From a virus (lineage: Duplodnaviria; Heunggongvirae; Uroviricota; Caudoviricetes): a stretch of 64,000 bases of DNA. The stretch is taken from positions 1 to 64,000 of the IMG/VR virus record IMGVR_UViG_3300008113_000007. The stretch is one strand, 5' to 3'. Every line of letters begins with the position of its first letter. Positions within the stretch are counted from its first letter, which is position 1. Shown here piece by piece: positions 87 through 29,098 of the stretch. Made by a program: the position numbers and the translations under genes. Under the pieces are notes generated by a model. The model made no database searches. It was not told the origin of the DNA and worked only from the letters and a program-made list of their open reading frames with translations.

Positions 87-1688
87 ATGAGGTACTTAAA
101 GACTTTCGAATCCGCCACGGAGTTCAACCCTGTCGACGTCATTTCTAAATATTGGGAAGTCGACTTTGATATGCTGAAGGACATGATGAGTTCACTTGCG
201 CTTACTTACGACACGCACGGTTTCGATATTTTTTTCTACCTTAGGCTAAACGATGAGGATTGTAATGTAATACAATACGACGAGAATAAGTTCAAGAAAG
301 GACCGTGGTGGGACAACCTGCTAGATATTATGGAAGGTGCTAGTAGAGGCCACAACAAGGTAGAGCCGAAGATCGAGTTCTGGATTGATATTCCGAACGA
401 CTACGACGGTTTTGTGCGTGATATGGACGATTTCATTTCCGACTCCGGCTTACCTTACCATAGTGCTGGTTTCATAGAGTTGAGTGATCACCTTTTCTTC
501 GCTTTGATGTATGAAGGTAAGACCGAGGCTTACTCATTGGACGAGTCTTCGGTTCCTGATCCTGTGGCGTTCGTCGTGGATAAGTGGAACGTTGACCCTC
601 ACGAGTTCAGGGACATAGCGGCCGCCACACTCGAGGGTTTCGACGAGTATGAGTTCGATCTAGAGTTCTCCATAATCTACCATTCCTCTCTTCTCGGAGG
701 TGATAGGCACCACCTCATAAAGTTCGAGGGTAGCAAGCTTGTTTGGAACACAAGTGGAATGTACTACGACCTGCCGATTTACCTGAATCTCATCAATGAC
801 GTGCCTGACAGGATAGAGTACTGCATATCGCTATCGCTGCCGATAGACAGGACGAAGGACAACGCAGACTTCGTGAAGCAGATATGTGCCGAGTTCAGCG
901 AAAGGCTCGGCCTGTGGGACAGCGAGTGGTCTCCGACCGAGATACTTGACGTGATGAGAGGTAACCAGTATTTGACGATGATAGGCTTCGCTCGCAAGGG
1001 TAAAAGTCAAAAGAAGAACCATCCGTACTCTTTCGAGGGTATGAGGTATCTTAAGACCTTCGAGTCTCACTCCTCGGACGACGTGCTAATCATAGTCGAC
1101 GTGCAGAAGTCTTTCAGTAAGTACTTCACCGACAAATATGTGAGTGAACTCAAGGACTACTGCCGTGGCTTCGGTCGCGTCTACCAGATATGGGACAACC
1201 ACGTTGAGGGTAAGAACGTAGACAAAGACTACCTATACGACGAAGATCCTGAGGATCCTATGAACGGAGACCTTTTCCACTTTCCGAACCAGGCGGACCT
1301 GATAGAGAAGAGGTACAACTACGACGTCGACGCGGACTTCTACAAGAAGATACTCGACAAGTCTGTCTACGGAGAAATAAAGTCAAAGGAGGACGACGGC
1401 TCTCTGGTTAGGGGTGACAGCTTTCCTACGAAGGAGGGAACTCTCATTATATTCATAGGCAACAACCACAAATGGTACCATATGCCGAAGAGCCTTTACG
1501 AGCTTTTCGAGGAGATAAGCCAGGCACAGTCGATGAACGAGAGTCTATCGGTTGACAAGGTCGTGCTTGTGGGTGGCGCGGATCGTGAGTGTCTCGACGA
1601 CGTCGAGACCGCGGCCAAAGTTATGGGCGTACGTCTTCAGAGGAATGACAAGTTCATATACTCTGCTACGCACTGTCCTATAAAATAA
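87..1688 (+). CDS. two-module protein: N-terminal module of unknown function plus C-terminal isochorismatase/nicotinamidase-like cysteine hydrolase module; carries a duplicated MRYLKTFES peptide (residue 1 and residue 319)
   Basis: Residues ~330-533 show 'VLIIVDVQKSF' (compare PncA/YcaC 'LLVVDVQNDF') and a later 'VVLVGGADRECL' with the conserved Cys. Exact 9-aa repeat MRYLKTFES at nt 87 and nt 1041, with synonymous nucleotide differences between the two copies. Confidence 0.5.
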   Translation: MRYLKTFESATEFNPVDVISKYWEVDFDMLKDMMSSLALTYDTHGFDIFFYLRLNDEDCNVIQYDENKFKKGPWWDNLLDIMEGASRGHNKVEPKIEFWIDIPNDYDGFVRDMDDFISDSGLPYHSAGFIELSDHLFFALMYEGKTEAYSLDESSVPDPVAFVVDKWNVDPHEFRDIAAATLEGFDEYEFDLEFSIIYHSSLLGGDRHHLIKFEGSKLVWNTSGMYYDLPIYLNLINDVPDRIEYCISLSLPIDRTKDNADFVKQICAEFSERLGLWDSEWSPTEILDVMRGNQYLTMIGFARKGKSQKKNHPYSFEGMRYLKTFESHSSDDVLIIVDVQKSFSKYFTDKYVSELKDYCRGFGRVYQIWDNHVEGKNVDKDYLYDEDPEDPMNGDLFHFPNQADLIEKRYNYDVDADFYKKILDKSVYGEIKSKEDDGSLVRGDSFPTKEGTLIIFIGNNHKWYHMPKSLYELFEEISQAQSMNESLSVDKVVLVGGADRECLDDVETAAKVMGVRLQRNDKFIYSATHCPIK

Positions 1689-1700
1689 AGTGATTTCGTT

Positions 1701-1904
1701 ATGCCGGCAAAGAGCAAGAACCAGTTCAAGTACATCTGGGCGATGCGCAGGAAGTACAAGTCTAAGAAGAAGGCTCCTAAGAGCATGAAGTGGGTATTCA
1801 ATGATGAGTGGACCGATGTCGAGTACAAGGATTTACCTAAGAAGGTCAAAGAGAGGTACGTACATAGCTACATAGATTTCCTGAACGAGCACTACAGGCG
1901 ATGA
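1701..1904 (+). CDS. small basic (Lys/Arg-rich) protein, hypothetical
   Basis: 67-aa ORF tightly packed after the upstream gene; composition suggests nucleic-acid binding. Confidence 0.35.
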   Translation: MPAKSKNQFKYIWAMRRKYKSKKKAPKSMKWVFNDEWTDVEYKDLPKKVKERYVHSYIDFLNEHYRR

Positions 1905-2279: not shown

Positions 2280-2305
2280 ATGCTATATATAAATATTGGC
2301 TACTC

Positions 2306-3268: not shown

Positions 3269-3291
3269 TTTTTTAGGTGCAGAGTTTACTT

Positions 3292-3300
3292 AATATATAA
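3292..3300 (+). promoter_or_regulatory. late-promoter-like AATATATAA box 4 nt upstream of the ATG at 3305
   Basis: Identical motif and spacing as at 74-82. Confidence 0.4.
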
Positions 3301-3304
3301 TGCT

Positions 3305-4282
3305 ATGATAGGTGAAAAGTTTAACTACGAGGACGTCTTCTTCCGCGATCTCACGGTCTGTGTTCTCGACACTCTCGAGGAGCAGATAAAGTGGACCAAC
3401 AGGTTCACCTCGGGCGACTACTTCGTCAAGGTGCCGATTTACTACTCGATGACTGGCGACGAGAGGTTCCTATTAGACAGCTTCTCTGATGATATAGTTT
3501 CGGATTCGAGGTATGTTGAGCTGAACACGGACGTGATACCGCGTGGCCATCTGACTATGACCGGTTTCAATATCAAGTCTGACGAGTTTGCCAATCCGAA
3601 TGTTTGGCTTAGAATGGTCATCGAGAACGAGAGTGAGATAAGGAAGGTTCTCACGAAAGTGCGTGCGGTTCCTATATCCGTGACCTACGACCTCACTATA
3701 TTCCTGAGTAGCGAAGTTGACAGTTTCAAGTGTAGCCAGTGTATTCTTAACACACTTTGGATTTACAGGTTCATGTACTTCGAGTTCAACTTTATGAACA
3801 TCGACGCCGTTATGACTATGCCGGACAGCAACCAGGTCGAGATGTCGAGGGAGAAGAACCTCACCTCTGATAACAGCATAAAGCTCAAGGTCAGCTTCAC
3901 CGTTGACACGTACTACCCTGCTTTCAGGCCTGACCGTATGAGTGGAGACGGAACCATAAGAGACTACGGATCTGGTATGTACGACTCTGACCTGAACGAC
4001 TACGTCTTCGAGGGTGAGATAAGCGAGTTCTTCGAGAGCCAGATAAAGTTCAACTCTGGATCGACCAAAGGAATCGTCACGAACCGCACCTGGAAGAACG
4101 GTCCGTGGACCGACACGAGCGTCTTCGGCCAGACCGGAAGCTTCCTGGACACAGGAGGAGGCGTCGGTGGCTCGGATCCGTTGGGTACCAGCACCAATCC
4201 GGACAACAAAATCGTTACTCCTAAGAGGTCAAGGTGGTTCAACGAGATACTCAAGTCCAGAGAGATAAACCGTGGAAGTTAA
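3305..4282 (+). CDS. virion structural protein, possibly a baseplate tube protein (gp54/gp48-like); weak
   Basis: Late-promoter box upstream; beta-rich composition; Gly/Ser/Thr-rich C-terminus 'GSTKGIVTN...GGGVGGSDPLGTSTN' reminiscent of the gp54 C-terminus; lies near the gp25-like gene. No strong motif. Confidence 0.3.
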   Translation: MIGEKFNYEDVFFRDLTVCVLDTLEEQIKWTNRFTSGDYFVKVPIYYSMTGDERFLLDSFSDDIVSDSRYVELNTDVIPRGHLTMTGFNIKSDEFANPNVWLRMVIENESEIRKVLTKVRAVPISVTYDLTIFLSSEVDSFKCSQCILNTLWIYRFMYFEFNFMNIDAVMTMPDSNQVEMSREKNLTSDNSIKLKVSFTVDTYYPAFRPDRMSGDGTIRDYGSGMYDSDLNDYVFEGEISEFFESQIKFNSGSTKGIVTNRTWKNGPWTDTSVFGQTGSFLDTGGGVGGSDPLGTSTNPDNKIVTPKRSRWFNEILKSREINRGS

Positions 4283-6258: not shown

Positions 6259-6284
6259 AAGACCCGTAAGGGTCTTTTTCTTTT
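6259..6284. terminator. bidirectional rho-independent terminator between the convergent gp55-like and GS genes (gaccc-gtaa-gggtc plus a T-run)
   Basis: Hairpin flanked by an A-run and a T-run. Confidence 0.6.
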
Positions 6285-7341
6285 AGTCTTCAATTAGAAC
6301 ATCGTCCGTGAGTATCGTCCTGACAATCCTCTCTACTACTAGGTAAGGATCTGCGTTCGATGCTGGCCTTCTATCCTCGATGTATCCTATCGCGTCAGCC
6401 TCGTTGATTGTCGACGGTATCCTAATCGACTTTGTCCTGTCCGCTATTCCCCAGCCGAAGTCCGTTATAGACGAAGTCTCGTTCGCACCGGTGAGCCTTG
6501 CCTCGTTGTTCTCGCCGTAGACTGCTATGTGCTCTGCGTGCCTTCTCGAAAGCTTCTCGCACATCTCTATTGCAATCTCCTTTTTGTTGACCTTGTCCTC
6601 TCTTATGGTCTTGGTCGAGAAGTTCACGTGCATTCCGGACCCGTTCCATCTCTCTCCCTCGAACGGCTTAGGATCGAGCTCTATCCTGTAGTCGTACTTC
6701 TCGCTCAGCCTGTGCAGTATGTATCTCGAAATCCACAGCTGGTCGGCTCCTTCCTCTGCCGTGACCGTTCCTACCTGGTACTCCCACTGGCCGAGTGCGA
6801 CCTCTGCGTTTATACCAGATACAGATATACCTGCCTTGATACATAGGTCGGCGTGCTCTTCTACGAATTCTCTACCTGAAACGTTGTTTCCGCCGACACC
6901 GCAGTAGTATTCGCCTTGCTCCCTAGGCTCGCCGTTCCATCCGAGTGGAAGTTCTGTCTTGTTGTCGAATATGAAGTACTCCTGCTCCCAACCGTACATT
7001 GTCTCGTCGTCGTTCTCACTGAGTATGTCTATCATCGCCGCCCTTGTGTTTGTCTCGTGTGGAGTTCCGTCCATGTTGTAGACTTCGCACAGCACGATTA
7101 TTCCGTCTTTCACGAACGGGTTGAGGAAGTAGTTCTTCGGAACCAACGCCAGCTCCGATTTGGAAGTCTCTGCCTGGTAGGTAGACGATCCGTCGAAGTT
7201 CCAGTTTGAAGCGGACTGCTTGCCCGATTTGAACTGTCTCAGTAGCTCTTCTGTGTCCCACGATGATTTTACAATCTTCGTCTTTGATCTTAGTTGCTGT
7301 GGTTTTGCACCATCAAGCCACACATACTCTAGTTTTTTCAT
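6283..7341 (-). CDS. glutamine synthetase, type II (eukaryote-like GSII) or a related gamma-glutamyl ligase
   Basis: GS signatures 'GEYYCGVGG' (GS 'G.YYC.VG'), ATP-binding 'KPFEGERWNGSGMHVNFSTK', 'VALGQWEYQVG', C-terminal 'SIRIP' arginine region; ~350 aa is typical of GSII. Confidence 0.85.
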   Translation of the reverse strand: MKKLEYVWLDGAKPQQLRSKTKIVKSSWDTEELLRQFKSGKQSASNWNFDGSSTYQAETSKSELALVPKNYFLNPFVKDGIIVLCEVYNMDGTPHETNTRAAMIDILSENDDETMYGWEQEYFIFDNKTELPLGWNGEPREQGEYYCGVGGNNVSGREFVEEHADLCIKAGISVSGINAEVALGQWEYQVGTVTAEEGADQLWISRYILHRLSEKYDYRIELDPKPFEGERWNGSGMHVNFSTKTIREDKVNKKEIAIEMCEKLSRRHAEHIAVYGENNEARLTGANETSSITDFGWGIADRTKSIRIPSTINEADAIGYIEDRRPASNADPYLVVERIVRTILTDDVLIED

Positions 7342-9958: not shown

Positions 9959-11701
9959 ATGGCCTCTTATAACTATTTCAATAACAACAATAACAACAAC
10001 CAGGCGTTCGGTATTCAGAACTCCGGTGAGAACAAAGGCTTCTTCAACCGTATACTGAGGAACCTGTCGAACCACGGTATGAACTATGACGACATGATCA
10101 TTCGCAATCAGGTCGGTGTTGGAATAAACGAGGATCCTTACGCATCTAAAGGAAATTCGATGTATGATTTCTTTAGTCAACGAGCAGTGGCGTCGGTTCT
10201 CGGCCGCAAGTCCGTTCCGTATCTTGATCGTTCGTATCCCGACAAGAGGAGAATACTGAGAGAGTACTCGATTAAGGACGAGATCAGGGACTTCGTGAGC
10301 CAGGTGGCCGACGAGTGTGTGGTTTACAACGATGACAGGGATTTCTGCTCTGCGCGCGCTCTTTCCACCGGATACAGCAAGGAGATACAGGACAAATACC
10401 TCGAGTACTTTGAAAGGATATACAACAAATACGGCTTCTCTGACAGTGTCACGGCTTTCAACCTGATAAAGGACTTCCTAATCGACGGGTACGTTGCTAT
10501 GGAGATAGTCTACGATGACAAGAAGAAGAACATAATCGCTTTCAACCGACTGAGACCTGAGACCATCGTCCCTGCATACGAGCCAAACGTGGGTCATCTA
10601 TGGATACAGTATCCTGAGGATCCTCAGCTCAGAAGGATTTTTCTCGACTCTCAGATAGTTTTCATATCTTACTCTACTCAGAACGACTTCTCAGAGACTT
10701 CCTACGTGGAAGGTCTCATCAAGCCATACAACCAGCTGAAGATACTCGAGCAGACGAAGATAATGTTCAACATCATCAACGCGACGCTCTACCAGGAGTT
10801 CAAGATTCCAATCAAGGGTCTTTCCAGGCAGAGGGCAGAGGAGCAGATTGGTCAGCTGATACACGACTACTCCGAGGAGGTCGAGTGGGACGACACTCTG
10901 GGAACGCTGACAATCAACGGTTCTAAGCACCTTCCGTTCAACAAGCAGATTTGGTTTCCTGAGGGCGACGCTGGATCGCCGTCGATGGAACTTAAGTCTC
11001 CGCAGGGTCACGACCTCAACGAGGACGGTATGCTTAAGTGGTTCCACCAGGCGCTCAAAAGGGCGTCTAAGATACCTCTGAACCGATTCGAGGGCGAGGC
11101 CGGCGGTGGTAACCTCATAACTGACGCGGCCGAGATGACGCGCGACGAGATAAAGTTCCACAACTTCATCGGAAGACTACGTGCCAACTTCAAAGAATTG
11201 ATAGTCAAGCCTTTGAAGCTACAGCTGCTTATAGAGTTTCCTGAACTTATAGATGACGATAAATTCCTAAACGAGGTAGACATCGAGTTCTACTCGAACC
11301 AGGTATTCGAGGAGTGGAAGAAACTTGGTAACCTTGAGAAGAAAGCCGGTATAGTCGGAACGCTACTTGGTGTTATGAACGGTGAGAAGCCTTACTTCCA
11401 CATCGAGTGGATTATGGACAACGTATTCAAGTTGTCTCCTGAAGAGAAGGCCGAGAACGCAAGATACTGGGCCAAGGATCCAACTGCGGCCGGTTCGGCG
11501 CCTGAAGGCGGTGGTGAGGCGGGTGCTCAAGGCGGCGGCGGCGGTGGCGAGATGGGTGCCCAAGGTGGTGGCGAAGCTCCTGCACAGGGAGGTGCTCAGG
11601 CTCCTCCTGCCGAGGGTGGTGGCGAGGCTCAGGCTCCTCCGGCACAGGGAGGTGCTCAGGCTCCTCCGGCACAAGGCGGTGGTGGCGAGTTCGAGTTCTA
11701 A
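9959..11701 (+). CDS. portal vertex protein (T4 gp20-like) with a poly-Asn N-terminal tract and a Gly/Ala/Gln/Pro-rich C-terminal low-complexity extension
   Basis: 'QVADECVVYNDDRDF' versus T4 'EIVSDAIVYEDDTEV'; 'PYNQLKILEQTKIMFNI' versus 'PANQLKLLEDAVVIYRI'; 'WFHQALKRASKIPLNRF' versus 'WFRQALYMALRVPLSRI'; C-terminal '...EFEF' like T4 '...EDF'. Confidence 0.9.
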   Translation: MASYNYFNNNNNNNQAFGIQNSGENKGFFNRILRNLSNHGMNYDDMIIRNQVGVGINEDPYASKGNSMYDFFSQRAVASVLGRKSVPYLDRSYPDKRRILREYSIKDEIRDFVSQVADECVVYNDDRDFCSARALSTGYSKEIQDKYLEYFERIYNKYGFSDSVTAFNLIKDFLIDGYVAMEIVYDDKKKNIIAFNRLRPETIVPAYEPNVGHLWIQYPEDPQLRRIFLDSQIVFISYSTQNDFSETSYVEGLIKPYNQLKILEQTKIMFNIINATLYQEFKIPIKGLSRQRAEEQIGQLIHDYSEEVEWDDTLGTLTINGSKHLPFNKQIWFPEGDAGSPSMELKSPQGHDLNEDGMLKWFHQALKRASKIPLNRFEGEAGGGNLITDAAEMTRDEIKFHNFIGRLRANFKELIVKPLKLQLLIEFPELIDDDKFLNEVDIEFYSNQVFEEWKKLGNLEKKAGIVGTLLGVMNGEKPYFHIEWIMDNVFKLSPEEKAENARYWAKDPTAAGSAPEGGGEAGAQGGGGGGEMGAQGGGEAPAQGGAQAPPAEGGGEAQAPPAQGGAQAPPAQGGGGEFEF

Positions 11702-14474: not shown

Positions 14475-14608
14475 CGTAAAAAATCCTCTATTGTTCTATT
14501 CGTGGAAAGACATTTGTTTCATCTTTCTCTGTAAAAAAACCACCCATATACAAATGTAGCGAAAAGAAAGATATATATACACTAAACGCACAAAAAATAA
14601 CTAATTAC

Positions 14609-16786: not shown

Positions 16787-16873
16787 TCTGTAAAAAGTCC
16801 ACTAGTTCAAAAAATAGATAAAAGTAGACAAATATATAGATTACTATTCACAAAAAAAAATAAAAATTCAAAA

Positions 16874-18589
16874 ATGTCACACATTAGAATAGACAAGGCG
16901 AAAGCCACTAAAAAGTGGGCACCGGTTCTCGAGAACATGGGTGTCACAGGTGATAGAGTAGAATGGATGGCGGAGTACGCTGAGTTCCACTCAATCAACG
17001 AGAACGCGTATGTAAACGCTTCTAACGTAGGCGGTATGGGCGCTGTATTGAACCCGGTTGTTGGTGACCTCGCAGGTAACCCAAGAACAGGTAACGTACT
17101 TTCACCAGTTGCTGGTTCAGGTGACGTAGGTCAAAACCTTCTTCCAGTTGCGATGAAGATTGCAGCTCAGACTATCGGTCTTGACCTCGTAGCTGTTAAG
17201 CCGTCTCCAGGTCCGAAAATCGACCTTCTTTACATCGACTTCCAATACGACGATGTTAGGTCTACAGACGGAACTGACGAGAGACCACAGGTGTTCAAAA
17301 TCAAATTGAGCTCTGATGACATGATCAAAGTAAAAGACACTGTTACTAAATTTGTTGGTAACGCAGTTCTTACTACTGGCGGTCTTACAAGTGGTAGACT
17401 TTTCGTAGACAACATTCAAGGTAGCTCTGATCTTAAGACTACTGAGTCTGCTGCTGCTCTTGCTACTACTAAGTACAAAAAACTCGAGTTCCTCGGATAC
17501 TCAAGGGTAGACGGTTACCCAATGTTCAGAGCTTGGAGACAAGACAACACAGCTCACACTGCTACTGGTGTTGCTGCCGCATCTACTCGTGCTTTCTGGT
17601 CTTTCGATCAAACAAGAAACACGTTCAACCCAACACAGTCTATGGCTGATCAGATTTCGTACATCGGTACTGCGTCTGTAACACCACAAGAGATTCAGTT
17701 GATTTCTGCACTTGAAGACCACATCCCTGGTTTCTCTGCAAACTGGACAGCTAACATCTCTTCTGGAGACTACCCAATGAACAGGAAACAAGATGACGAT
17801 TCTTACGCTGGTGTTATCGGACCTAAGATCTCTTCTAAGACTATCCAAGTTGGTACTATCGAGGTATCTTCTGCACTCAGAAGAACTGAGATTGAGGACA
17901 TCAAAGCTAACACAGGTATGGACATCGTACAAAAGATGGAATCTATCCTCGTGAACGAGCTTTCCCAAACTATCTCTAAGCAAATCGTCGCTAAGATTTT
18001 CGAAATGGGTGACCTCAACAGAACATCTGCACCTGCATTCGGTGGAAGTGCAACTATCACTGGTCACACAATCTTCGACCTTGACACAGCATACGCTTCT
18101 GGTGGTTCCCTTGGTGGTGAGACTACTCACGCTGTACAAAGGAAGCTTATCACTAAGATAGCTCACGCTTCTAACTTCATCGCGACTGAGGGTCGTGTAG
18201 GTCCTGCTCAATACCTTATCACAAACGGAGGTCTTGCTGCTGCTCTACAAGACATCGCTGGTTACACAATCAACCCAGTGAAATCTAAACTCAACGGACA
18301 AGGTCAGCTTTATCCAGTTGGTTCAATAGGCGACATCGCTATCTACGTTGACCCATACATGAGATACAACGACAACAGAATCGTCCTTGGTAGGAAGAAC
18401 AACCCTGATCAACCAGGTATCATCTTCGTTCCTTACCTTATGGCACAATCTATCTCAGTTATTTCTGAGGCGACTTTCGCACCAAGAATGCTCTTGAGAT
18501 CTAGATATGCTGTTGCAGAAGTTGGTTGGTTCCCACAAAAACAATTCATGACTATCCAAGTAAGAGATGTAGCTCAATTGCTCAACTAA
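16874..18589 (+). CDS. major capsid protein (T4 gp23-like)
   Basis: 'KATKKWAPVLENMGV' versus T4 gp23 'KAELLNKWKPLLEGEGL'; 'LLPVAMKIAAQTIGLDLVAVKPSPGP' versus 'IGPAVMGMVRRAIPNLIAFDICGVQPMNSP'; 571 aa; lies downstream of the protease/scaffold gene as in T4. Confidence 0.9.
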   Translation: MSHIRIDKAKATKKWAPVLENMGVTGDRVEWMAEYAEFHSINENAYVNASNVGGMGAVLNPVVGDLAGNPRTGNVLSPVAGSGDVGQNLLPVAMKIAAQTIGLDLVAVKPSPGPKIDLLYIDFQYDDVRSTDGTDERPQVFKIKLSSDDMIKVKDTVTKFVGNAVLTTGGLTSGRLFVDNIQGSSDLKTTESAAALATTKYKKLEFLGYSRVDGYPMFRAWRQDNTAHTATGVAAASTRAFWSFDQTRNTFNPTQSMADQISYIGTASVTPQEIQLISALEDHIPGFSANWTANISSGDYPMNRKQDDDSYAGVIGPKISSKTIQVGTIEVSSALRRTEIEDIKANTGMDIVQKMESILVNELSQTISKQIVAKIFEMGDLNRTSAPAFGGSATITGHTIFDLDTAYASGGSLGGETTHAVQRKLITKIAHASNFIATEGRVGPAQYLITNGGLAAALQDIAGYTINPVKSKLNGQGQLYPVGSIGDIAIYVDPYMRYNDNRIVLGRKNNPDQPGIIFVPYLMAQSISVISEATFAPRMLLRSRYAVAEVGWFPQKQFMTIQVRDVAQLLN

Positions 18590-18607
18590 TACTAGAAATG
18601 AATACAG

Positions 18608-18639
18608 AAAAGCCACTCGAAGAGTGGCTTTTCTCTTTT
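18608..18639 (+). terminator. rho-independent terminator after the capsid gene (agccactc-gaa-gagtggct plus a T-run)
   Basis: 8-bp hairpin plus TTTCTCTTTT. Confidence 0.65.
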
Positions 18640-18648
18640 AATATATAA
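18640..18648 (+). promoter_or_regulatory. late-promoter-like AATATATAA box 4 nt upstream of the ATG at 18653
   Basis: Same motif and spacing as at 74-82 and 3292-3300. Confidence 0.4.
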
Positions 18649-18652
18649 ACTT

Positions 18653-19129
18653 ATGATTATAAAGAGATTTTCAAAGTATCTTGAGAACTTCGTTGATCCG
18701 GTAAAGGTCGACCTGAAGAAGTTCGACGGAAGCGTCAGGCACAAGATTTTCAACTCATCATCCGGTGAAGTGTTCAACGTCTGGATATCTAAAGACGTTG
18801 ATGCCTCGCTGAAGCTCACACGGCTCTACGTCGGTAAGCACGCGCTCGACCTCGGCGGTTACGCGCCCAGCACGAACGACGTTTGGCTCGGTAAAGAGGA
18901 ATATGTTGCTGTGGTCAAGACGAACAAAGACGACATAGTGCCTAAAGACGTACTTATCGATGTCGCATTCGAACTGAGAAGACTGGCGAATACTCACAAA
19001 GAGGACTTAGACGAAGTTGAAATGTCTAAGAGCTCATTCGTTTCAGTTCGCAACGGAGAGGTTTTGATAGACAGAAAAAACTCTGGTAGAGTGATATTCT
19101 CGCCGGGAAATGTTAGATTTGAATTATGA
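18653..19129 (+). CDS. hypothetical protein
   Basis: ORF; its stop overlaps the start of the peptidase gene (ATGA). Confidence 0.45.
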   Translation: MIIKRFSKYLENFVDPVKVDLKKFDGSVRHKIFNSSSGEVFNVWISKDVDASLKLTRLYVGKHALDLGGYAPSTNDVWLGKEEYVAVVKTNKDDIVPKDVLIDVAFELRRLANTHKEDLDEVEMSKSSFVSVRNGEVLIDRKNSGRVIFSPGNVRFEL

Positions 19130-20148
19130 GAAAAAGAATAGACGAAAAGGAGTTCGGTGGCGACTACACAGACGTGAGGTCGACCTTCCTTTCGCTTACG
19201 TCGAAGACATACCCGCACGGCCACGAGGAAGAGGTTCTCGAACTACTACCATCGCTGGACAGAGACGAGTTCGGAAACTACTACAAAGTAATCGGCGAAC
19301 GTCCAACAACGATGTTCACGTCGCACCTCGACACCGCAGATCACAGGCAGAACAAGACCGAAAGATACTCTTCAATCGAGAACGGCGAAGAGCAAATCAC
19401 AACCGATGGTAACACAATACTCGGCGCAGACGACAAAGCCGGCGTCACGGTAATGCTCTACATGATGGAAAAGAAAGTCCCGGGTCTTTACTACTTCTTC
19501 ATCGGTGAGGAAAGAGGAGGCATAGGATCCAAGAGGCTCGCAAACGATTACGACTCTGTCGAGTTAGTAAAAGACGTGGTAAGATGTGTTTCTTTCGACA
19601 GGAGAGGCACAGGATCCGTAATAACCAAGCAGCTCGGAAGACAGTGCTGCTCTGATACCTTTGCCAACGCGCTCGCCGAGCAATACAACGGCCTGGGTAT
19701 GCAGATGGCACCTGACCCGACCGGAATCTTCACCGACTCTGCGATGCTGATGGGTCTGATACCGGAGTGTACCAACATCTCCGTTGGGTATATGAACGAG
19801 CACACTGGCAAAGAGGTGCAGAACATCACACACCTCGAGAAACTTTGTGTGGCCAGCTGCAAGGTCGACTGGGAATCACTGCCGACCGAGAGAAGTCTCG
19901 AAGACGCCAAAAAGTCTGAAAACGACTATCCCAGTGAGTACAAAGGCATAGTCAAGGACGCCAAGAAACTGGATTCATTCGGTGGTGTAGCAGAAGAGCA
20001 ATATGGTTGGGCACTTTACTTCGACATAGAGGGCCTCAAGCCTTCGGCCGCGGCGTCCGAGCTTAACGGCATCTCTCAACTAATCGATAAGCACGAGTTG
20101 GACAGCCAGTGCTATACCGACAACGGATATCTAATAATAGCACTATGA
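19126..20148 (+). CDS. MH-clan zinc metallopeptidase (M20/M28/M42-like)
   Basis: Metal-ligand motifs in canonical order: 'SHLDTAD' (HxD), 'GADDKAGV' (bridging Asp), 'IGEERGGIGS' (catalytic and metal-binding Glu-Glu). Confidence 0.6.
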   Translation: MRKRIDEKEFGGDYTDVRSTFLSLTSKTYPHGHEEEVLELLPSLDRDEFGNYYKVIGERPTTMFTSHLDTADHRQNKTERYSSIENGEEQITTDGNTILGADDKAGVTVMLYMMEKKVPGLYYFFIGEERGGIGSKRLANDYDSVELVKDVVRCVSFDRRGTGSVITKQLGRQCCSDTFANALAEQYNGLGMQMAPDPTGIFTDSAMLMGLIPECTNISVGYMNEHTGKEVQNITHLEKLCVASCKVDWESLPTERSLEDAKKSENDYPSEYKGIVKDAKKLDSFGGVAEEQYGWALYFDIEGLKPSAAASELNGISQLIDKHELDSQCYTDNGYLIIAL

Positions 20149-20402
20149 GACTGAACAGATACAGAAAATTCGTCGAGTCCAACGGATCCGAATTGAGACG
20201 GTTGATAGACGAAATACACGGACACGAGATGAAGGTCGTCGAGCACGACGACATGATCGAGGTAACTTTCCACCTTGGTAACAGCTTCGAAATATCTAAT
20301 CTTCAGGATCTCTTCGAGCAGGTCGCAAAGGTCGAGAAGAGGTTTCCGGACATAACATGGAAGGACGACGGAGCAGATTTCGTTTTCGAGTTCTACTTTT
20401 AA
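20145..20402 (+). CDS. hypothetical protein; probable true start is MRLNRYRKFVES (CTS-like N-terminus) within track ORF 20109..20402
   Basis: In-frame ATG at 20145 gives an N-terminus matching the recurring MR(L/Y)xK..FxE motif. Confidence 0.4.
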   Translation: MRLNRYRKFVESNGSELRRLIDEIHGHEMKVVEHDDMIEVTFHLGNSFEISNLQDLFEQVAKVEKRFPDITWKDDGADFVFEFYF

Positions 20403-20418
20403 TTGTTATATTTGTGGA

Positions 20419-20856
20419 ATGGTCACAGAGACGACATTCCAGAACATGATCAGGTTCGCCTTCCACTTCAACCGCCATATGGGTAACAAAGTCGAGGATA
20501 TGGATGCTACGTACATACTCGAGAAGTGGAACGCCTACTTCGGCGACTCCGTTCCGCCGGTTCCGACTACGGATTTCCTCGAACAATATGTTGCCTCGCT
20601 TTGGTGCCAGAGGTGGTCCAACTTCGAACGCGTCGCCGGACACATCCAGCTTATACAGAGAATGAACACGAAATTGACGCCGCAGAGGATCCTCGAGGTT
20701 TTCGAGGGCACTCAGTGGGACGATAACAGAAATTCCGTCTACGAGAACCTACATCCCAATGTACGCCAGGTCATGGACGGGTGGTTGTCCGCACACAATA
20801 AGGAGATGAAGCAGGTGCTCCGAGAAATTCGCCTGGACGCGTTAACTTCCAAATAA
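20419..20856 (+). CDS. hypothetical protein
   Basis: ORF only. Confidence 0.4.
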   Translation: MVTETTFQNMIRFAFHFNRHMGNKVEDMDATYILEKWNAYFGDSVPPVPTTDFLEQYVASLWCQRWSNFERVAGHIQLIQRMNTKLTPQRILEVFEGTQWDDNRNSVYENLHPNVRQVMDGWLSAHNKEMKQVLREIRLDALTSK

Positions 20857-20874
20857 AAGCCCTATATTCGCTAT

Positions 20875-21069
20875 ATGAAACCGTTACAGAGAGTGATAAG
20901 CACATTCGACGTCGACGCCGCGCTTTACGAGGCCAGACAGCGATGCCATTGGTACATAGACGGCTACTTCCTGCACGGTCTAACCCCTGAGCTTTTCTCC
21001 TCTCTTTCCACGGAAAGGATCTGTGAGATTTACAACGTAGAAATCGATTACTTTAAAATAAGAAAATGA
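20875..21069 (+). CDS. small hypothetical protein
   Basis: ORF only. Confidence 0.3.
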   Translation: MKPLQRVISTFDVDAALYEARQRCHWYIDGYFLHGLTPELFSSLSTERICEIYNVEIDYFKIRK

Positions 21070-21263
21070 AAAAAATAGCAAGCATCGCACTGCACTTGAT
21101 AGGCTTCGTGGCCTGGGTGTCACTTACGTCTTTTCTTTTGGACCATTTCATAAGCCGTCCAACAAATCCAATCATACAGACAGGAATATTTATTTTTATA
21201 ATGCTGTACACAATGGGATTTATTCACTATATTTACACTCGTATAACCAATAAAAACAAATAA
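21066..21263 (+). CDS. small membrane protein (two hydrophobic helices), possibly an NfeD-like partner of the SPFH protein
   Basis: Hydrophobic 65-aa ORF immediately upstream of the SPFH gene with overlapping start/stop. Confidence 0.35.
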   Translation: MKKIASIALHLIGFVAWVSLTSFLLDHFISRPTNPIIQTGIFIFIMLYTMGFIHYIYTRITNKNK

Positions 21264-22208
21264 ATGATAACTACAATTCTGGTCATAGTGGCCTTGGCCT
21301 TTGCTGCCTACAAAATCATCACTGGTATCCAGACGATACAGGGTGCAGGTTACAACAACAAAACACAGGAGGCGGAAGGTCGAAAGTCCGTCACGATCGG
21401 TATTGTAGGTGGGGTAGGTATTATTATCTTCGCCTTCATACAGCCTTTCTCGATTGAGAGGGTAGACGCGGGACACGTCGGGATCAAGGTGAACCTTACA
21501 GGGGACAACAGGGGCGTCTCGAAGTACCAGTATAAGACAGGATGGGTCGTTTACAACACCTGGACGGAGAACCTGTACGAGTTCCCGACGTTCCAGCAGC
21601 ACATCGAGTTCGACCAGCAGCAGGTCATCACAAAAGGTGGCTTCCCGGCTGACATCAAGCCTTCTTTCAACTACTCGTTGAAGCCTACCGCGGTCGGCGA
21701 CATGTTCGTGAACCTTCGACTCCCTATCAAGGACGTAGAGCAGGGTTGGCTTAAGAACGCGATTGTCGGTGCAGTGAACGACGTCGCTAACACCTGGGAG
21801 GTCGACTCCATCTTCGGTCACCGCCAGGCATTCGAGACTGCCATCGTGAACGAGTGCAACATACGTCTTTCTAAATGGTTCGCCGTTTCTCAGATGAGAT
21901 CTAACATCGTCCCGCCTGAGGCATTACAGGAGGCAATCGTTGCCAAAACGAGATCTGTTCAGCAGGCAGAGGCGTCGAAGCAGCAGGCTTTGGCTGCACA
22001 GGCAGACGGACAGCGCAAGATTGCCGTTGCGAAGGCTGACTCCGCAGAGACCGTAATCAACGCGTCGGCGAAGGCGAAGGCGATGGAGCTTACGCAGCAA
22101 AAGCTTACTCCTCTTTACGTAGAGTACAAGAAGGTTGAGAAATGGGACGGCCACAACTCAAGCACCGTACTTGGCAACGGCAGCAACACGTTGGTAAACG
22201 TAAAATAA
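21264..22208 (+). CDS. SPFH/Band-7 (stomatin/prohibitin/HflK-like) membrane protein
   Basis: N-terminal TM helix followed by a Band-7-type core ('GHVGIKVNLTGD...') and an Ala/Gln-rich coiled-coil C-terminus 'QQAEASKQQALAAQADGQRKIAVAKADSAE'. Confidence 0.7.
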   Translation: MITTILVIVALAFAAYKIITGIQTIQGAGYNNKTQEAEGRKSVTIGIVGGVGIIIFAFIQPFSIERVDAGHVGIKVNLTGDNRGVSKYQYKTGWVVYNTWTENLYEFPTFQQHIEFDQQQVITKGGFPADIKPSFNYSLKPTAVGDMFVNLRLPIKDVEQGWLKNAIVGAVNDVANTWEVDSIFGHRQAFETAIVNECNIRLSKWFAVSQMRSNIVPPEALQEAIVAKTRSVQQAEASKQQALAAQADGQRKIAVAKADSAETVINASAKAKAMELTQQKLTPLYVEYKKVEKWDGHNSSTVLGNGSNTLVNVK

Positions 22209-22216
22209 CACATATT

Positions 22217-22253
22217 CAATCGGGCGGGTTGCCCTGCCCGATTGAACTTTTTT
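22217..22253 (+). terminator. rho-independent terminator (caatcgggc...gcccgattg plus a T-run)
   Basis: 9-bp inverted repeat followed by TTTTTTCG. Confidence 0.6.
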
Positions 22254-22269
22254 CGTTCTTTGATTATAA

Positions 22270-22278
22270 TATATAACA
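22270..22278 (+). promoter_or_regulatory. AATATATAA box immediately upstream of the tmRNA-like gene
   Basis: Same motif as upstream of the structural genes; about 10 nt before the GGGG 5' end. Confidence 0.35.
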
Positions 22279-22288
22279 AACACACAAC

Positions 22289-22660
22289 GGGGATGTCATG
22301 GATTCGCCTAGCGGAATACAGGTAGTTGTGCAGGTATCGGGTTGTCGAATGTCCGATTAACAAATTAGACGGCGAACTGTCGTAAATGGCAAAACAAATG
22401 AAGTAGGAACCCGTGAAGACTTAGTAGCGGCCCTCGCAAAGATCGGCTCTAAAGAGCTCGAGTTGGCGTAGAAATATACCGACGAACAAAAATTCTCCAA
22501 GCTGTCCCGCGCAGTCCACAAATGCGGAACCAGATTGTTAGAGTGATGGGTCAGTTCAACTAACTATTTTGTGAGCTTCGAAAAACTCTCTAAGCCTGTG
22601 AACGAGCACCTATTGGTAGCCGATTAGTACATCGGGGTCAGTGCCCGATCATCTCCACTA
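22289..22660 (+). ncRNA. ssrA: tmRNA (ssrA)-like gene, one-piece
   Basis: 5' 'GGGGAUGUCAUGGAUUCGCC' versus the E. coli tmRNA 5' 'GGGGCUGAUUCUGGAUUCGAC'. 3' T-arm-like 'UCGGG-GUCAGUG-CCCGA' followed by 'UCAUCUCC', which pairs with the 5' 'GGGGAUG' to give a 7-bp acceptor stem with one G-U pair. ~372 nt with no protein ORF; own terminator downstream. The 3' end reads ACUA rather than ACCA. Confidence 0.55.
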
Positions 22661-23006: not shown

Positions 23007-23495
23007 ATGATAAACAGCTTCAGCGGAAGATACAGCTTCCTTTCCAACTTCTACCCGTGCAAGATTTTGCACCAGGGCATAACGTACCCCTCGGTCGAGC
23101 ACTTCTACGTCGCGATGAAGTGCAACGGCCCGCAGCAGATGAACGGCGTGCAGTACACCCCTATTGACTTCCGTGAGATGCTCGCGCGAATACCGGAGCC
23201 CGGTGTCGTCAAGAAAATAGGCAACAAGATAGTTCTCAGAAAGGACTGGGACGACAAGAAGCTGGAGTTCATGAACTGGGCGGTTCGTGAGAAGTTTTCG
23301 GACAACAAGCTGGCTGAGTTACTTCTCATGACCGGCGACGAGCCACTCGTCGAGGGGAACAACTGGCGAGACACGTTCTGGGGAGTGTGCGACGGCAAGG
23401 GCCAGAACCACCTAGGTAAGATACTGATGCAGGTCAGGGACGAGCTTCGCGGAACGCAGAGGACCGGCCTGGAGGCTGTGCTAGGTCTTAGGTAA
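23007..23495 (+). CDS. NADAR (YbiA-like, DUF1768) family protein
   Basis: 'FLSNFYPCKI...YPSVEHFYVAMK...WGVCDGKGQNHLGKILMQVRDEL' matches NADAR signature blocks. Confidence 0.75.
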   Translation: MINSFSGRYSFLSNFYPCKILHQGITYPSVEHFYVAMKCNGPQQMNGVQYTPIDFREMLARIPEPGVVKKIGNKIVLRKDWDDKKLEFMNWAVREKFSDNKLAELLLMTGDEPLVEGNNWRDTFWGVCDGKGQNHLGKILMQVRDELRGTQRTGLEAVLGLR

Positions 23496-24482: not shown

Positions 24483-24484
24483 TT

Positions 24485-26166: not shown

Positions 26167-26170
26167 ATCT

Positions 26171-26425
26171 CTATTGTATTTTGTTTTTCTTCCATCCGAA
26201 GATTCTTCTCTCCAGAAGCGCGAAGGTGAAGTTGAACTCCTTCATTATCTGCTCGGCCATCGCGTCTATGTCCGCAGCGGTCTCCCCTGTGTCGTGCCCG
26301 TCCTCCGCGAGGAGCCTCTCAATCTCAGCACGGCATCTCTCGAATGTGATTGGCTCCAGTCCTGGCTGCTCGAGCGACTCGACTATCTTGCTGAACTTTG
26401 GCATTCCTTTGTCGTTTCCTTGCAT
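26171..26425 (-). CDS. small acidic hypothetical protein
   Basis: ORF only. Confidence 0.35.
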   Translation of the reverse strand: MQGNDKGMPKFSKIVESLEQPGLEPITFERCRAEIERLLAEDGHDTGETAADIDAMAEQIMKEFNFTFALLERRIFGWKKNKIQ

Positions 26426-26429
26426 AATC

Positions 26430-27122
26430 TTATTCTTTTGTTGATATGGTAACGATTACGACGTCCTGGTCGTCCTCGTCGTGCCTGAAGCTAACGTTGG
26501 CTTTCGACATGTCTATCCCCTTTGTGAAGGCCGCCCATTTCCTATTCGTGAATACGCCTAGGTTGCCGCCGCACCTTATGGAGAAGCTGTCATTGACTTT
26601 TTCCACTTCGCGCGGCTCCCAGAGCATGTGCCTGGCGAAGTCCGTGCTGGTCTTGTAGAATTTGCCCCTGAGTGCGGTGAAGAGTTCCTTGAGAGCGATC
26701 TCTTTGTCCGAGGAATTCGTCTCGTCCACGACGTGCAGTATGGTGAACTTTATTTGGCTGTCATACCACGTCATGCTCAGTGCCGAGCCGTCTTCGCTGA
26801 GCCTGCTGCACAGGTTTCCGACCTCTGCAATGAGCTCGAAAATCCTCTGGTCGCTGGTGTAGGCACGATCGAACGTTCCTTCTTTGAAATTGAAGACGTC
26901 CACTTCCGCGTTTAGTTCGTCGACGTATTTGTTCTTCACCCAGATGACTATGGAACGGACCATCTTTTTGTACAGGTGCGACGATGTGTCTGTCACCGGC
27001 TGCGGTTCAGAGATACGCACCTCGAAGCCGAGGTCCTTTATCGGTAGCAGCATCTCCTCTACCGCGCTATCGTCCCACTCGGCGGCCTCCTTTATGTACT
27101 CGTAGAATTTCTGTAGTCTCAT
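26430..27122 (-). CDS. hypothetical protein with a CTS-like N-terminus (MRLQKFYEYIKE)
   Basis: N-terminus matches the recurring MR(L/Y)xK(x)(F/Y)xE motif. Confidence 0.45.
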   Translation of the reverse strand: MRLQKFYEYIKEAAEWDDSAVEEMLLPIKDLGFEVRISEPQPVTDTSSHLYKKMVRSIVIWVKNKYVDELNAEVDVFNFKEGTFDRAYTSDQRIFELIAEVGNLCSRLSEDGSALSMTWYDSQIKFTILHVVDETNSSDKEIALKELFTALRGKFYKTSTDFARHMLWEPREVEKVNDSFSIRCGGNLGVFTNRKWAAFTKGIDMSKANVSFRHDEDDQDVVIVTISTKE

Positions 27123-27132
27123 ATTGTATATA

Positions 27133-27615
27133 TCACTTCACCTTGAAGGTCTTTTCTATCTTGTCCGCCACCGGGTTGAACAGCAGCAGGTTTCTCGTTC
27201 CTCCCTCGTAGACCCAGACGCCGTCGTAGTTGCCCTCGATCCAGGACATCAGCTGCTCGTCCGCCTCTATCGGCGACCAGCTGTCGCTGTGGTGGTATAG
27301 TTGGTCGGCGGTGCTCACCAGGAACTCCGGCTCGTCGGACGAGTAGTACGGATCCTCGAGAGGCCCGAACTCGTCTATTATTTTCTGGCAGTCCTCGATC
27401 TTGTTTGTGTCGAGAAGCCTCAGGTCCTTCTTCAGGTCGACCTTGTAGACGTGGTTTCCGTACATCTTCGCCTCGTTCGGGCTTGTCGAGAAGAACGTCC
27501 CGTTGGCCAGGTCTCCCCTTTTTCCGAACTCGTGCTCGTCGGGCGTGCCGTGGTATACGACCGCCGCGCCGTGCTCGTTGTACGTGAACTCGTCGAATAC
27601 CTTTACGTACCTCAT
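27133..27615 (-). CDS. putative ADP-ribosyltransferase of the H-Y-E (diphtheria-toxin/PARP-like) type, with a CTS-like N-terminus (MRYVKVFDEF)
   Basis: 'VVYHGTPDEH...GTFFSTSPNEAKMYG' parallels diphtheria toxin 'SYHGTKPGYV...GFYSTDNKYDAAGY' (His, then Y-rich STS-like segment); downstream acidic candidates 'VWVYEGG'/'IEADEQ'. Alternative: Tpt1/KptA-like 2'-phosphotransferase. Confidence 0.35.
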   Translation of the reverse strand: MRYVKVFDEFTYNEHGAAVVYHGTPDEHEFGKRGDLANGTFFSTSPNEAKMYGNHVYKVDLKKDLRLLDTNKIEDCQKIIDEFGPLEDPYYSSDEPEFLVSTADQLYHHSDSWSPIEADEQLMSWIEGNYDGVWVYEGGTRNLLLFNPVADKIEKTFKVK

Positions 27616-28319
27616 CTCACGCCGGTCTTCAGTTTTTTGTCGAGCATCTTGGCGAGGTTAGAGCCGATGAAGTAGTGTATGTTCTTCAGGTCCTCGGTCT
27701 CGTGCGTCTCTATCTCGTCCATGAACCTGAACTGGAACTTGTAGTGGTCTACGTCCTCGTCCGACTCGCGGTCGACCTTGTAGATCGAGAGCTCTACGTT
27801 GTAGTTGTTGTTTATGTTTATCTTGAAGTCGAACGTCGTGTCAGCGCACGGCGTGGTCTTGAACTTCGGCTCGTACTCCACGTCGAATATCGAGTAGTCC
27901 TCGATCTTGGCCCTCTTCATGTAGTAGTTGAGGAACATCGCCGGTGCCTCGATGAAGTCTGAGAGGATGATTAGGTCCTCGCCGAAGTTGTTTGTCTCGA
28001 TTACGTTCTCTATCTTCTCCTTGAGGTCGATGATGTTGTCGAACTCGACCTTGTGGTACACGCAGTTTATGTCGTAGAGGTAGATGAATTCCCTCTCTAC
28101 TATCTCTCTCTTCTCGAGGTCTGTCTTGAACAGGAACTTCGTGTGTATGATGTTCGAGTCATCTGTGCTTAGCCCGTGTATGGATATCACGAGTTTCAGG
28201 AAGTCGGCGTCCTCCTTCTTCGGCCTTTCGTAGATTGTCTCTACCGTCTTCACCACGCCATCCTCCTCCTGGAAGACCTCTTTGAAAATGTCCTCTATCT
28301 CGGCAATCTTGATCTTCAT
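27612..28319 (-). CDS. hypothetical acidic protein within the operon (overlapping start/stop with neighbours)
   Basis: ORF with 4-nt overlaps on both sides. Confidence 0.45.
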   Translation of the reverse strand: MKIKIAEIEDIFKEVFQEEDGVVKTVETIYERPKKEDADFLKLVISIHGLSTDDSNIIHTKFLFKTDLEKREIVEREFIYLYDINCVYHKVEFDNIIDLKEKIENVIETNNFGEDLIILSDFIEAPAMFLNYYMKRAKIEDYSIFDVEYEPKFKTTPCADTTFDFKININNNYNVELSIYKVDRESDEDVDHYKFQFRFMDEIETHETEDLKNIHYFIGSNLAKMLDKKLKTGVR

Positions 28320-29098
28320 ATGGAGTTGTCTTTTTTCTCGAACTGTCTGTCGTAGGCCAACCTCTTCATCTTCATCACTTTGTCAGTGTATCCGTTTCTT
28401 CTGAGAAGCTTGAAAACGAGGTTTCCTATCGAGAACTCGCCGCTCTCACTCTCGAGACCGGACTTACGGAAGTCTTTGATTCTCTTCCAGACCCCGTCTA
28501 GTTTTTTTACGAACTCTTCGTATTTATCCTCGTTTAGTTCTTCTTCAAGTTCGTCTATCTGAGACATAACGGTCTCCGCTTTCGACCTGATAAGTTTCTC
28601 ATCTGGTACGAAGTCCTTTCTTTCTGGCTTTCTGATCCATTTGTCTTTCATCAGTGAGTAGACTCCACCCATTCTGCCACCTTTTATGGCATCGTTCATA
28701 TCGTCCTCGTCCTGTATCATCACCTCGACTTCGTATCCTGCGATTTTGATGTCGTGCTTGAGGTTCCATATCTTCTTGCTTAGGTCACATACCTTCTCGG
28801 CTAGCTCGAAATCGTCGTCTATATCTTTGTAGTGTATTATTACGTGTAAATCGTAGTCCGAATATCTCTCTGACCAGTTGTAGTTACAGAGTGATCCACA
28901 GAGAACCACGTCAACCACGTCGGCCTTCAGGTCGGACTCCGCATAGAAGTCCTGTCCTATCATAAGCAGGTTTCTTCTGACCTCATCATCGAGGTCACCG
29001 TTTTCCCAAAGCTTTTGGTTAAGCTCGTCCTTCATATGAAATGAGCTTATGGCCTCGAAGTCGGCCTGCACGAATTCGTAGTATTTGTCCAGTCTCAT
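28316..29098 (-). CDS. nucleotidyltransferase-fold protein (Pol-beta superfamily) with a CTS-like N-terminus (MRLDKYYEFVQ)
   Basis: NTase signature 'LCGSLCNYNWSERYSDYDLHV' (hG[GS]...DhD); first gene behind a minus-strand TATATATA box near 29105. Confidence 0.5.
   Translation of the reverse strand: MRLDKYYEFVQADFEAISSFHMKDELNQKLWENGDLDDEVRRNLLMIGQDFYAESDLKADVVDVVLCGSLCNYNWSERYSDYDLHVIIHYKDIDDDFELAEKVCDLSKKIWNLKHDIKIAGYEVEVMIQDEDDMNDAIKGGRMGGVYSLMKDKWIRKPERKDFVPDEKLIRSKAETVMSQIDELEEELNEDKYEEFVKKLDGVWKRIKDFRKSGLESESGEFSIGNLVFKLLRRNGYTDKVMKMKRLAYDRQFEKKDNSI

Follow-up and report, generated by a model that had tools for sequence, protein, structure and literature searches.

A recurrent N-terminal peptide in a megaphage genome fragment

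We analysed a 64,000-nt stretch of a tailed-phage record (Caudoviricetes; IMGVR_UViG_3300008113_000007, positions 1 to 64,000; hereafter the window) in which a peptide of about ten residues, exemplified by MRYLKTFES, recurs at the N-termini of otherwise unrelated proteins and resembles the capsid targeting sequence (CTS) of bacteriophage T4. The window holds about 73 genes and its GC content ranges from 46 to 54%. Within the phage collection searched, its nucleotide-level relatives are only LR745206 (635 kb) and LR756502 (642 kb), both uncultured, and at the protein level the relatives include LR756504 and LR756501/3 (735 kb). These relatives are "Mahaphage" genomes of 635-735 kb with a predicted Bacteroidetes host (PMC7162821). 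The window thus belongs to a megaphage with a T4-like head, related to the Mahaphages. We know of no cultured member of this megaphage clade.

The initial annotation of this DNA had listed seven sites bearing the peptide (hereafter the tag), all of which are present where it placed them, but the set proved larger, with at least eight sites on seven window proteins. Scores given below come from a position-specific scoring matrix (PSSM) trained on LR745206 only and holding no window information. MRYLKTFES is the N-terminus of a two-module protein of 533 aa encoded by the open reading frame (ORF) 87-1688 (tag at 87-113, + strand, score 12.7), and an internal copy at residue 319, on the border between its N-module and C-module (1041-1067, + strand), scores 18.9. 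The two copies differ at 6 of 27 bases, all of them synonymous, and at no amino acid. ORF 18653-19129, which immediately follows the major capsid gene, starts with MIIKRFSKYLEN (18653-18688, + strand, score 12.0), a site added here, and ORF 20145-20402 (85 aa), whose ATG runs into the stop of ORF 19126-20148 (overlap ATGA), starts with MRLNRYRKFVES (20145-20180, + strand, score 10.7).

The remaining cited sites lie on the minus strand. Two genes encoded downstream of ORF 28316-29098 on the same strand are tagged, as is that ORF itself: MRLQKFYEYIKE opens ORF 26430-27122 (27087-27122, score 14.3), MRYVKVFDEF opens ORF 27133-27615 (27586-27615), and MRLDKYYEFVQ opens ORF 28316-29098 (29066-29098, score 13.8), which has a putative Pol-beta-type nucleotidyltransferase fold. 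The LR745206 orthologue of ORF 26430-27122 has the N-terminus MKHLTQFFDYIKE. MRYVKVFDEF matches at the core positions; it misses the PSSM threshold owing to three residues that do not occur in the training tags. The best-scoring N-terminus of the window is that of ORF 60395-61123, MKKIKRFRLFES (61088-61123, score 16.9), whereas MIDLKKFNYFSGEES on ORF 57480-58025 (57480-57524, + strand) is a weak candidate whose score of 8.5 is just over the loose threshold of 7.65. All window tags begin at Met1, except for the internal copy at the fusion border, and their codons vary.

Two further N-termini in the operon that holds three of the tagged genes are recorded here as observations. ORF 27612-28319 (- strand) starts MKIKIAE-IEDIFKE and has a short IAE site, which recalls the ITE-6 site of T4 Alt, a protein starting MELITE (PMC5694885); its N-terminus, conserved as MNIKISEIEQAFKE in LR756502 and as M..VRISEIEQVFKE in LR745206, has a negative PSSM score and is a candidate only. 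ORF 26171-26425 (- strand) starts MQGNDKGMPKFSKIVES, in which an internal Met is followed by KFSKIVES, and fails the scoring matrix.

Recurrence beyond chance

The recurrence was evaluated in LR745206, an independent genome of 29% GC that was taken whole (935 predicted genes), with internal-Met windows serving as pseudo-N-termini and shuffled N-terminal residues as a second control. A simple regular expression applied to the first 13 residues matched 26 N-termini against 1.05 after shuffling and 1 of 2,875 internal-Met windows. The iterated matrix at its loose threshold returned 157 N-termini, with about 3 expected in 935 (from 9 of 2,848 internal-Met windows), and at a score above 12 it retained 140 of the 935 true N-termini (15%) against 1 of 2,848 controls. 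Transferred to the window, the same matrix scored six N-termini above 10 (those at 61123, 27122, 29098, 87, 18653 and 20145); the control rate for this test, 5 of 2,848 internal-Met windows in LR745206, implies about 0.13 chance matches among 73 window N-termini. The suggestion that the recurrence is unlikely to be a coincidence is therefore borne out. Among the 308 internal-Met windows of the window's own proteins a single one passed, and it is the second copy in ORF 87-1688 (18.9).

The carriers had been described as unrelated, and this agrees with all-against-all BLAST, which finds no similarity among window carriers beyond the first dozen residues. Paralogy of the carriers was likewise rejected as an explanation in LR745206, where the 157 carriers, with the tag removed, fall into 141 BLAST clusters, 129 of them singletons.

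Two tag flavours can be told apart in LR745206. Type A, to which MRYLKTFES belongs, is dominant, reads MK[YH][LI][KR]x[FY][NE]E[SF] or MKYLKKYK[IL]FES, and has aromatics at i and i+4. Type B is a minority flavour, reads MIKK[YW]NQFI[NK]E or MRLKKYLEFIKES, and carries the exact T4 pattern described below. Applied to the more distant megaphages LR756501, LR756504 and LR756500, the LR745206 matrix found few matches although tag-like N-termini are visible there by eye; the matrix is lineage-specific.

Resemblance to the T4 capsid targeting sequence

The CTS of T4 is MKTYQEFIAE (PMC8442874). According to mutagenesis of IPIII, targeting depends mainly on Y4 and F7, and processing on I8 and E10 (PMC9026906), and from these data the pattern Ar-x-x-Ar-[ILV]-x-E (Ar, aromatic) was set beforehand. 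In LR745206, 25 proteins have a match that begins in their first nine residues, with 1.4 expected, and over the whole genome the pattern gives 89 matches against 41 expected after shuffling, most of the excess being N-termini and the protease-scaffold protein (11 matches). The window has 21 matches against about 3.2 expected, of which 12 are in the protease-scaffold protein and one, the sole N-terminal match, is the tag at 27122.

The converse comparison makes no use of the T4 pattern. When the megaphage matrix was run on 44 annotated T4 genes (a 22-kb stretch), the top three were the internal proteins IPI (14.4), IPIII (14.3) and IPII (13.4), with the next best gene at 3.1, and the ten CTS residues alone score 14.06. 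The 50-kb head/tail region of T4, scanned as a negative control over every ATG-started ORF, gave one spurious match. The proposed resemblance to the T4 CTS thus stands, as a matrix trained on megaphage proteins specifically ranks the three T4 internal proteins first.

Like the T4 CTS, the tag is N-terminal, about ten residues long, and found on otherwise unrelated, fast-evolving proteins; both share an early basic residue and two aromatics three apart, followed by I/V and Glu. Within the window the T4 pattern is exact only at 27122, with near matches at 29098, 20145, 18653 and 61123, and the sites at 87, 1041 and 27615 have their aromatics at i and i+4. Every window tag has a Glu at positions 8-12. 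The differences are as clear: in the dominant megaphage flavour, MK[YH]L[KR]x[FY][NE]E[SF], the aromatics are spaced by four positions and a canonical I/LxE is usually missing; some tags are found inside proteins, at module borders; and where T4 has a handful of CTS proteins, there are at least eight sites among 73 window genes and tags on about 15% of LR745206 proteins. Outside the megaphages, the annotated cytidylyltransferase of Synechococcus phage MA01 (L004, 480-1352) starts MKGFSNFLIEA, which is CTS-like, so that such tags are maybe common in T4-like cyanophages.

A prohead protease fused to CTS-like repeats

As in T4, the head module has homologues of gp20, gp21 and gp23. The gp20-type portal protein is encoded at 9959-11701 (+ strand; Pfam Portal_T4, E = 2.5e-57) and the gp23-type major capsid protein at 16874-18589 (+ strand; Pfam Gp23, E = 2.6e-28), and a gp15-like protein at 3305-4282 is part of the same T4-like module. 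Between portal and capsid genes, ORF 14609-16786 (+ strand) encodes a 725-aa protein composed of a gp21-type serine protease domain (about residues 1-170), repeats, an acidic tract and a C-terminal domain. The initial annotation had named a gp21 homologue at this position, which tblastn corroborates with matches to annotated T4-type prohead proteases (E = 1e-13 to 1e-19), among them those of cyanophages, a Pelagibacter phage and RaK2. Its GEFDHP and FVSSRAAG segments align with the catalytic residues H85 and S140 of T4 gp21 (PMC12991175), and the Pfam S77 match is weak (E = 0.0023; 17.9 bits against a 27-bit cut-off). The LR745206 orthologue of the whole protein is 73% identical.

Residues 289-456 of this protein (15473-15976, + strand) are twelve tandem 14-residue repeats of YSEY[IL]AENLDKNIA, each holding both Ar-x-x-Ar-[ILV]-x-E and a gp21-type [IL]AE site. 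In the DNA, Tandem Repeats Finder reports a period of 42 and 10.8 copies over 15512-15963. LR745206, LR756501 and LR756504 share these repeats, which are degenerate in the more distant LR756500. T4 encodes gp21 and the scaffold protein gp22, which starts MLKEQLIAEA, separately, whereas here the protease is joined to a scaffold-like domain of 12 CTS-like repeats. The stretch from the protease gene to the capsid gene of the window holds no gp22-like gene, and judging from this arrangement the protease-repeat fusion apparently replaces a separate gp22-type scaffold gene.

A related pattern is found in the capsid protein. Within its propeptide, the segment WMAEYAEFHSINEN (16964-17005, + strand) combines aromatics at i and i+3 with a subsequent I-x-E site. 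Four related megaphages keep the segment (WMAEYAEFHSINE-N) as WMSEYAE[FMY]H.[IM].EN, and the distant LR756500 has the looser form WMSKYAHYHELYEN. LR745206 has, in addition, a 157-aa paralogue of the capsid-protein N-terminus, propeptide included (L010, 291407-291880), and an 83-aa protein built of scaffold-type repeats (L014, 460435-460686); their products may be decoys or accessory core components.

Carrier proteins and the detachable tag

The tag behaves as a module that is separable from the folds it precedes. In the AlphaFold2 model of the C-module of ORF 87-1688 (mean predicted local distance difference test, pLDDT, 86.7) the tag, residues 1-9, is below 50 and unstructured; in that of the nucleotidyltransferase 28316-29098 (mean pLDDT 84), residues 1-10 average only 60 and form no secondary structure. 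In both models the tag is thus predicted to lie outside the folded domain, as a low-confidence N-terminal extension.

Homologues of ORF 87-1688, of which 59 were found, show the modules in several combinations. Its N-module stands alone in P0125-128, the C-module follows several different N-modules in proteins that are nearly all N-terminally tagged, and MRYLKTFES at the N-terminus is conserved on homologues P0121-P0128. The full-length fusions P0121-124 (66-89% identical) strictly keep the internal tag, and another fusion of independent origin, P0135, likewise bears an internal tag of its own where its modules meet. The C-module match in LR745206 and LR756502 starts exactly at the tag, and in LR745206 it is a separate tagged gene. 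Since the two MRYLKTFES copies differ only synonymously, and since genomes as different in GC content as 29% and 48% retain the tag, selection acts on the peptide. Also persistent is the tag of the nucleotidyltransferase family (1,240 metagenomic homologues): M[KR][LV]x[KR][FY][FYL]EFVQ or a close variant is kept by nearly all of the 120 homologues listed.

Enzymatic activities had been proposed for several carriers (ADP-ribosyltransferase (ART), nucleotidyltransferase (NTase) and hydrolase). Each label finds some match, but all of them are weak. ORF 27133-27615 matches ART-PolyVal at E = 7.5e-5, below the Pfam cut-off. For ORF 28316-29098, Foldseek gives E = 3e-4 to CD-NTase and ANT folds, with G68 S69 ... 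D81 x D83 invariant. The C-module of ORF 87-1688 has no Foldseek match with E < 0.001 and a weak isochorismatase/nicotinamidase-like one (probability 0.93, TM ~0.45; invariant D20, K90, C184). Pfam and PHROGs searches of the remaining window carriers, including ORF 60395-61123, returned no family match.

About 90% of the LR745206 carriers have no Pfam match. The matched ones are a CCA-adding-type NTase head domain, T4 RNA ligase 1, NUDIX, 2H/Acb1-like, RNase T-like, DHH, M15 peptidase, NFACT-R, Toprim_2, MazE-like and DUF6576 proteins. The carriers with an annotation are accessory enzymes, one exonuclease among them. Neither polymerase holoenzyme, RNA polymerase nor tail proteins were found among them by Pfam, and the replication-type matches are only weak (DNA_pol_B_exo1, 8.5e-5; Toprim_2, 3e-4). 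In the window, no tag is found on any gene that Pfam assigns to a housekeeping or structural family; these are the genes for a clamp loader, the portal and capsid proteins, RNase R, glutamine synthetase, Dam methylase, NADAR, glycosyltransferases, Fpg and ThyA. The NADAR-domain protein (23007-23495, + strand, E = 2e-25) is encoded about 4 kb from the tagged ART-like ORF 27133-27615 (- strand), and the two may form an ADP-ribosylation writer/eraser pair.

An upstream motif resembling late promoters

Carrier genes tend to be preceded by an AT-rich motif. In LR745206, 43% of carrier genes have [AT]ATATATA in the 30 nt before them, compared with 14% of the remaining genes (p = 8e-15), and host-type TAnnTTTG promoters are depleted among carriers. 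The T4 late promoter is TATAAATA, which [AT]ATATATA resembles, and by its sequence the motif looks like a T4-late-type promoter. In the window it lies within 35 nt upstream of 17 of 73 genes (for example at 69-81, 3287-3299, 18635-18647, and, on the minus strand, 29103-29112 and 49033-49040). It stands before three tagged genes (those at 87, 18653 and 29098) and also before the portal gene, the gene of the gp15-like protein and the large tail-fibre-like ORFs. At 87 and at 18653 the promoter-like motif AATATATA lies 5 nt upstream of the tag. In 8 genes only 4-5 nt separate the end of the motif from the ATG, so that their transcripts would be leaderless; in the rest the gap is 15-26 nt (e.g. the portal gene and the 2179-aa ORF). 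No Shine-Dalgarno sequences were seen among window genes. In LR745206, 103 genes have [AT]ATATATA 3-7 nt upstream. Tag and motif are separable: 54 genes have a close motif and no tag, and 91 tagged genes have no close motif.

Tags differ between phage lineages

Outside the clade, the conserved domain of the nucleotidyltransferase starts ...ELNPKLW, and what precedes it varies by lineage. The N-terminus reads KFYEFVQ in the megaphages, MKKLLSELK... in Cyanophage MA01 and MNLKTLVET... in the cultured Maribacter phage Molly_1, while LR756504 (L003, 5923-6708) has the tandemly duplicated tag MKSK-VLKLNEF-VLKLNEF. Orthologous cargo thus bears a different tag in each of these phage lineages. Molly_1 (L022) appears to have a tag of its own, [K]x-L-[VI]-E-[ST], found on six unrelated proteins of 77 (encoded within 13131-22383) against 0.1 expected, a count that is indicative only, the pattern having been defined post hoc. 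Molly_1 also encodes a protease-scaffold fusion (44147-45445) with LTES, ITES and INES segments. As a cultured flavobacterial myovirus it offers an experimental handle on an analogous system; the published Maribacter phage paper reports no virion mass spectrometry.

A proposed model for tag-directed packaging

We consider it fairly probable that the peptides are T4-type capsid (prohead-core) targeting propeptides, and we infer docking, cleavage, head retention and injection of the carriers. Late in infection, the tag would dock its carrier onto the assembling scaffolding core, which is probably built of the protease-scaffold fusion, the YSEYIAE repeats of which share Ar-x-x-Ar-I-x-E with the T4 CTS and with type-B tags. 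The capsid shell would then close round this core, and the gp21-type protease would cut after Glu, reducing the repeats to short peptides, removing the capsid propeptide and freeing the cargo. At internal border tags, as in ORF 87-1688, one polyprotein would yield two released cargo proteins. Cargo kept in the head would enter the host with the DNA, where the proteins could plausibly act as counter-defence or takeover factors.

Several observations weigh against this reading. Firstly, 15-17% of the proteome is tagged, far above T4's handful and maybe too many for one capsid; SPN3US, which carries > 40 MDa of ejection proteins in a 240-kb head (PMC7411985), indicates that such a number of carriers is not physically absurd. 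Secondly, most tags are of type A and have no canonical I/LxE. The (L/I)xE ends anticipated from T4 are present at 27122 (IKE) and 61123 (LFE), but the other six window sites, with an aromatic or another residue at P3/P2, read TFE, FVE, FDE, YYE or YLE; gp21 prefers I/LxE, and some xxE sites are cut more weakly (PMC12991175). Thirdly, the carriers are acidic, with a net charge of -0.059 per residue against -0.013 for other proteins, whereas T4 internal proteins are basic. Fourthly, no more than 43% of carriers have the late-type motif. Lastly, a PSSM built from the scaffold repeat gave just 2-4 fold N-terminal enrichment, because a matrix made from almost identical repeats is too narrow; only type-B tags accordingly resemble the scaffold, and for them the shared pattern is suggestive.

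The first four of these points would also suit an addressing or processing tag for something other than the capsid interior, be it a propeptide that holds effectors inactive until cut off by a phage protease, another assembly or compartment signal, or a handle for a phage chaperone: 140-157 carriers of 935 are very many for capsid cargo, they are acidic, most of their tags miss the canonical I/LxE, and just 43% have the late-type upstream motif. We judge this unlikely nonetheless, given that the tag model specifically recognises T4 internal proteins and that the pattern occurs 12 times in the prohead protease-scaffold and again in the capsid propeptide. For the variant in which the tag serves nucleus-like import, clear replication or transcription carriers are missing, with only the weak DNA_pol_B_exo1 and Toprim_2 matches.

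A different view would make the shared start a relic of cassette shuffling, in which recombination at a conserved 5' module of promoter plus first codons brought in new genes, as proposed for the hypervariable T-even internal-protein loci, and the peptide itself is functionless. The many carriers in tandem ORFan arrays, and AATATATA immediately upstream of 43% of them, are what such shuffling would leave behind. Yet DNA identity is not kept, neither between the two MRYLKTFES copies nor among the variable codons of the window tags; the peptide persists from 29% to 48% GC; 91 tagged genes have no close upstream motif; and the tag survives inside fusion proteins, at points where no gene begins any more. 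We regard this account as very improbable.

Hardly credible, finally, is the idea that the first codons serve translation initiation through a constraint on the RNA or nascent chain of perhaps leaderless mRNAs, for although no Shine-Dalgarno was seen, AATATATA ends 4-5 nt before many ATGs and, in the low-GC relative, AT-rich codons abound in the tags, the variation is synonymous with amino acids unchanged, the aromatic and Glu positions are conserved beyond composition (1.05 shuffled against 26 observed), 54 genes with a close motif are untagged, large structural-type proteins included, and the internal copy in ORF 87-1688 has no upstream promoter-like motif. A DNA-level or translation signal was rejected on the synonymous variation, the shuffling controls and the independence of tag and motif.

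Returning to the capsid-targeting reading, its most far-reaching form would hold for the entire Mahaphage clade: more than 100 proteins, or about 15% of the coding capacity, would be loaded via the protease-fused repeat array, infection would start not just with DNA but with an injected, ready-made and very diverse proteome (enzymes of counter-defence, RNA repair and nucleotide modification, besides many ORFans), and tag and scaffold repeat would be a single ancient recognition module shared with T4. This extension is a tentative one, and we would sooner doubt it than assume it.

Relation to other head-loading systems

The CTS concept is classical; what is new here is the scale, the second tag flavour, the internal border tags and the CTS-like repeat array fused to the protease. 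In the literature on the term 'capsid targeting sequence' we found no link to huge phages, and the tag strings were not found in a phage context. A parallel among giant phages is phiKZ/SPN3US, in which head and ejection proteins carry N-terminal propeptides; many internal head proteins (about 50 head proteins in SPN3US) are processed by a gp21-related protease, and a probable role in directing proteins into the prohead is ascribed to the propeptides (PMC5694885, PMC7411985). These propeptides mostly have 80-130 residues and no common decapeptide, whereas the megaphage tag is short and common to > 100 proteins.

Phage P1 is comparable in that its Dar anti-restriction proteins, counter-defence factors injected with the DNA, are head-loaded via N-terminal packaging determinants, and the CTS is mentioned in that context (PMC9024508). 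P1 differs by a hierarchical packaging of few proteins, with no common decapeptide and no T4-type head. The principle of a detachable short peptide that addresses diverse enzymes into an HK97-fold shell is also that of encapsulins. Their cargo-loading peptides are short terminal tags, usually C-terminal, which bind the shell protein directly and remain uncleaved; they have no sequence similarity to the megaphage tag, and neither scaffold nor protease is involved.

If the capsid-targeting reading is true, one decapeptide would predict which proteins are packaged in the virion and injected across an entire uncultured clade of the largest phages known. More than 100 ORFans per genome would thereby gain their first functional label ("delivered with the DNA"), and there would be a hint at why such genomes hold many small accessory genes. 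The CTS principle would then be ancient and scalable across the T4 superfamily. The CTS-like repeats of the protease-scaffold point to a way in which a CTS may be recognised. The tags could also extend T4-style protein packaging to other phages and provide a sequence rule for mining candidate anti-defence proteins.

Other genes of the window

Two genes within the head-gene region lie on the opposite strand, namely a glutamine synthetase homologue (6283-7341, - strand) and an RNase II/R homologue (12194-14092, - strand; RNB domain, E = 2e-99). Further downstream, the ORFs 30213-31945, 31989-38528, 38586-41437 and 42114-47015 (all - strand) probably constitute a tail-fibre/receptor-binding region. 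Here (30213-47015), three tandem glycine-rich-domain paralogues and three tandem paralogues starting MA..LTFTS are located beside giant ORFs of 2179 and 1633 aa.

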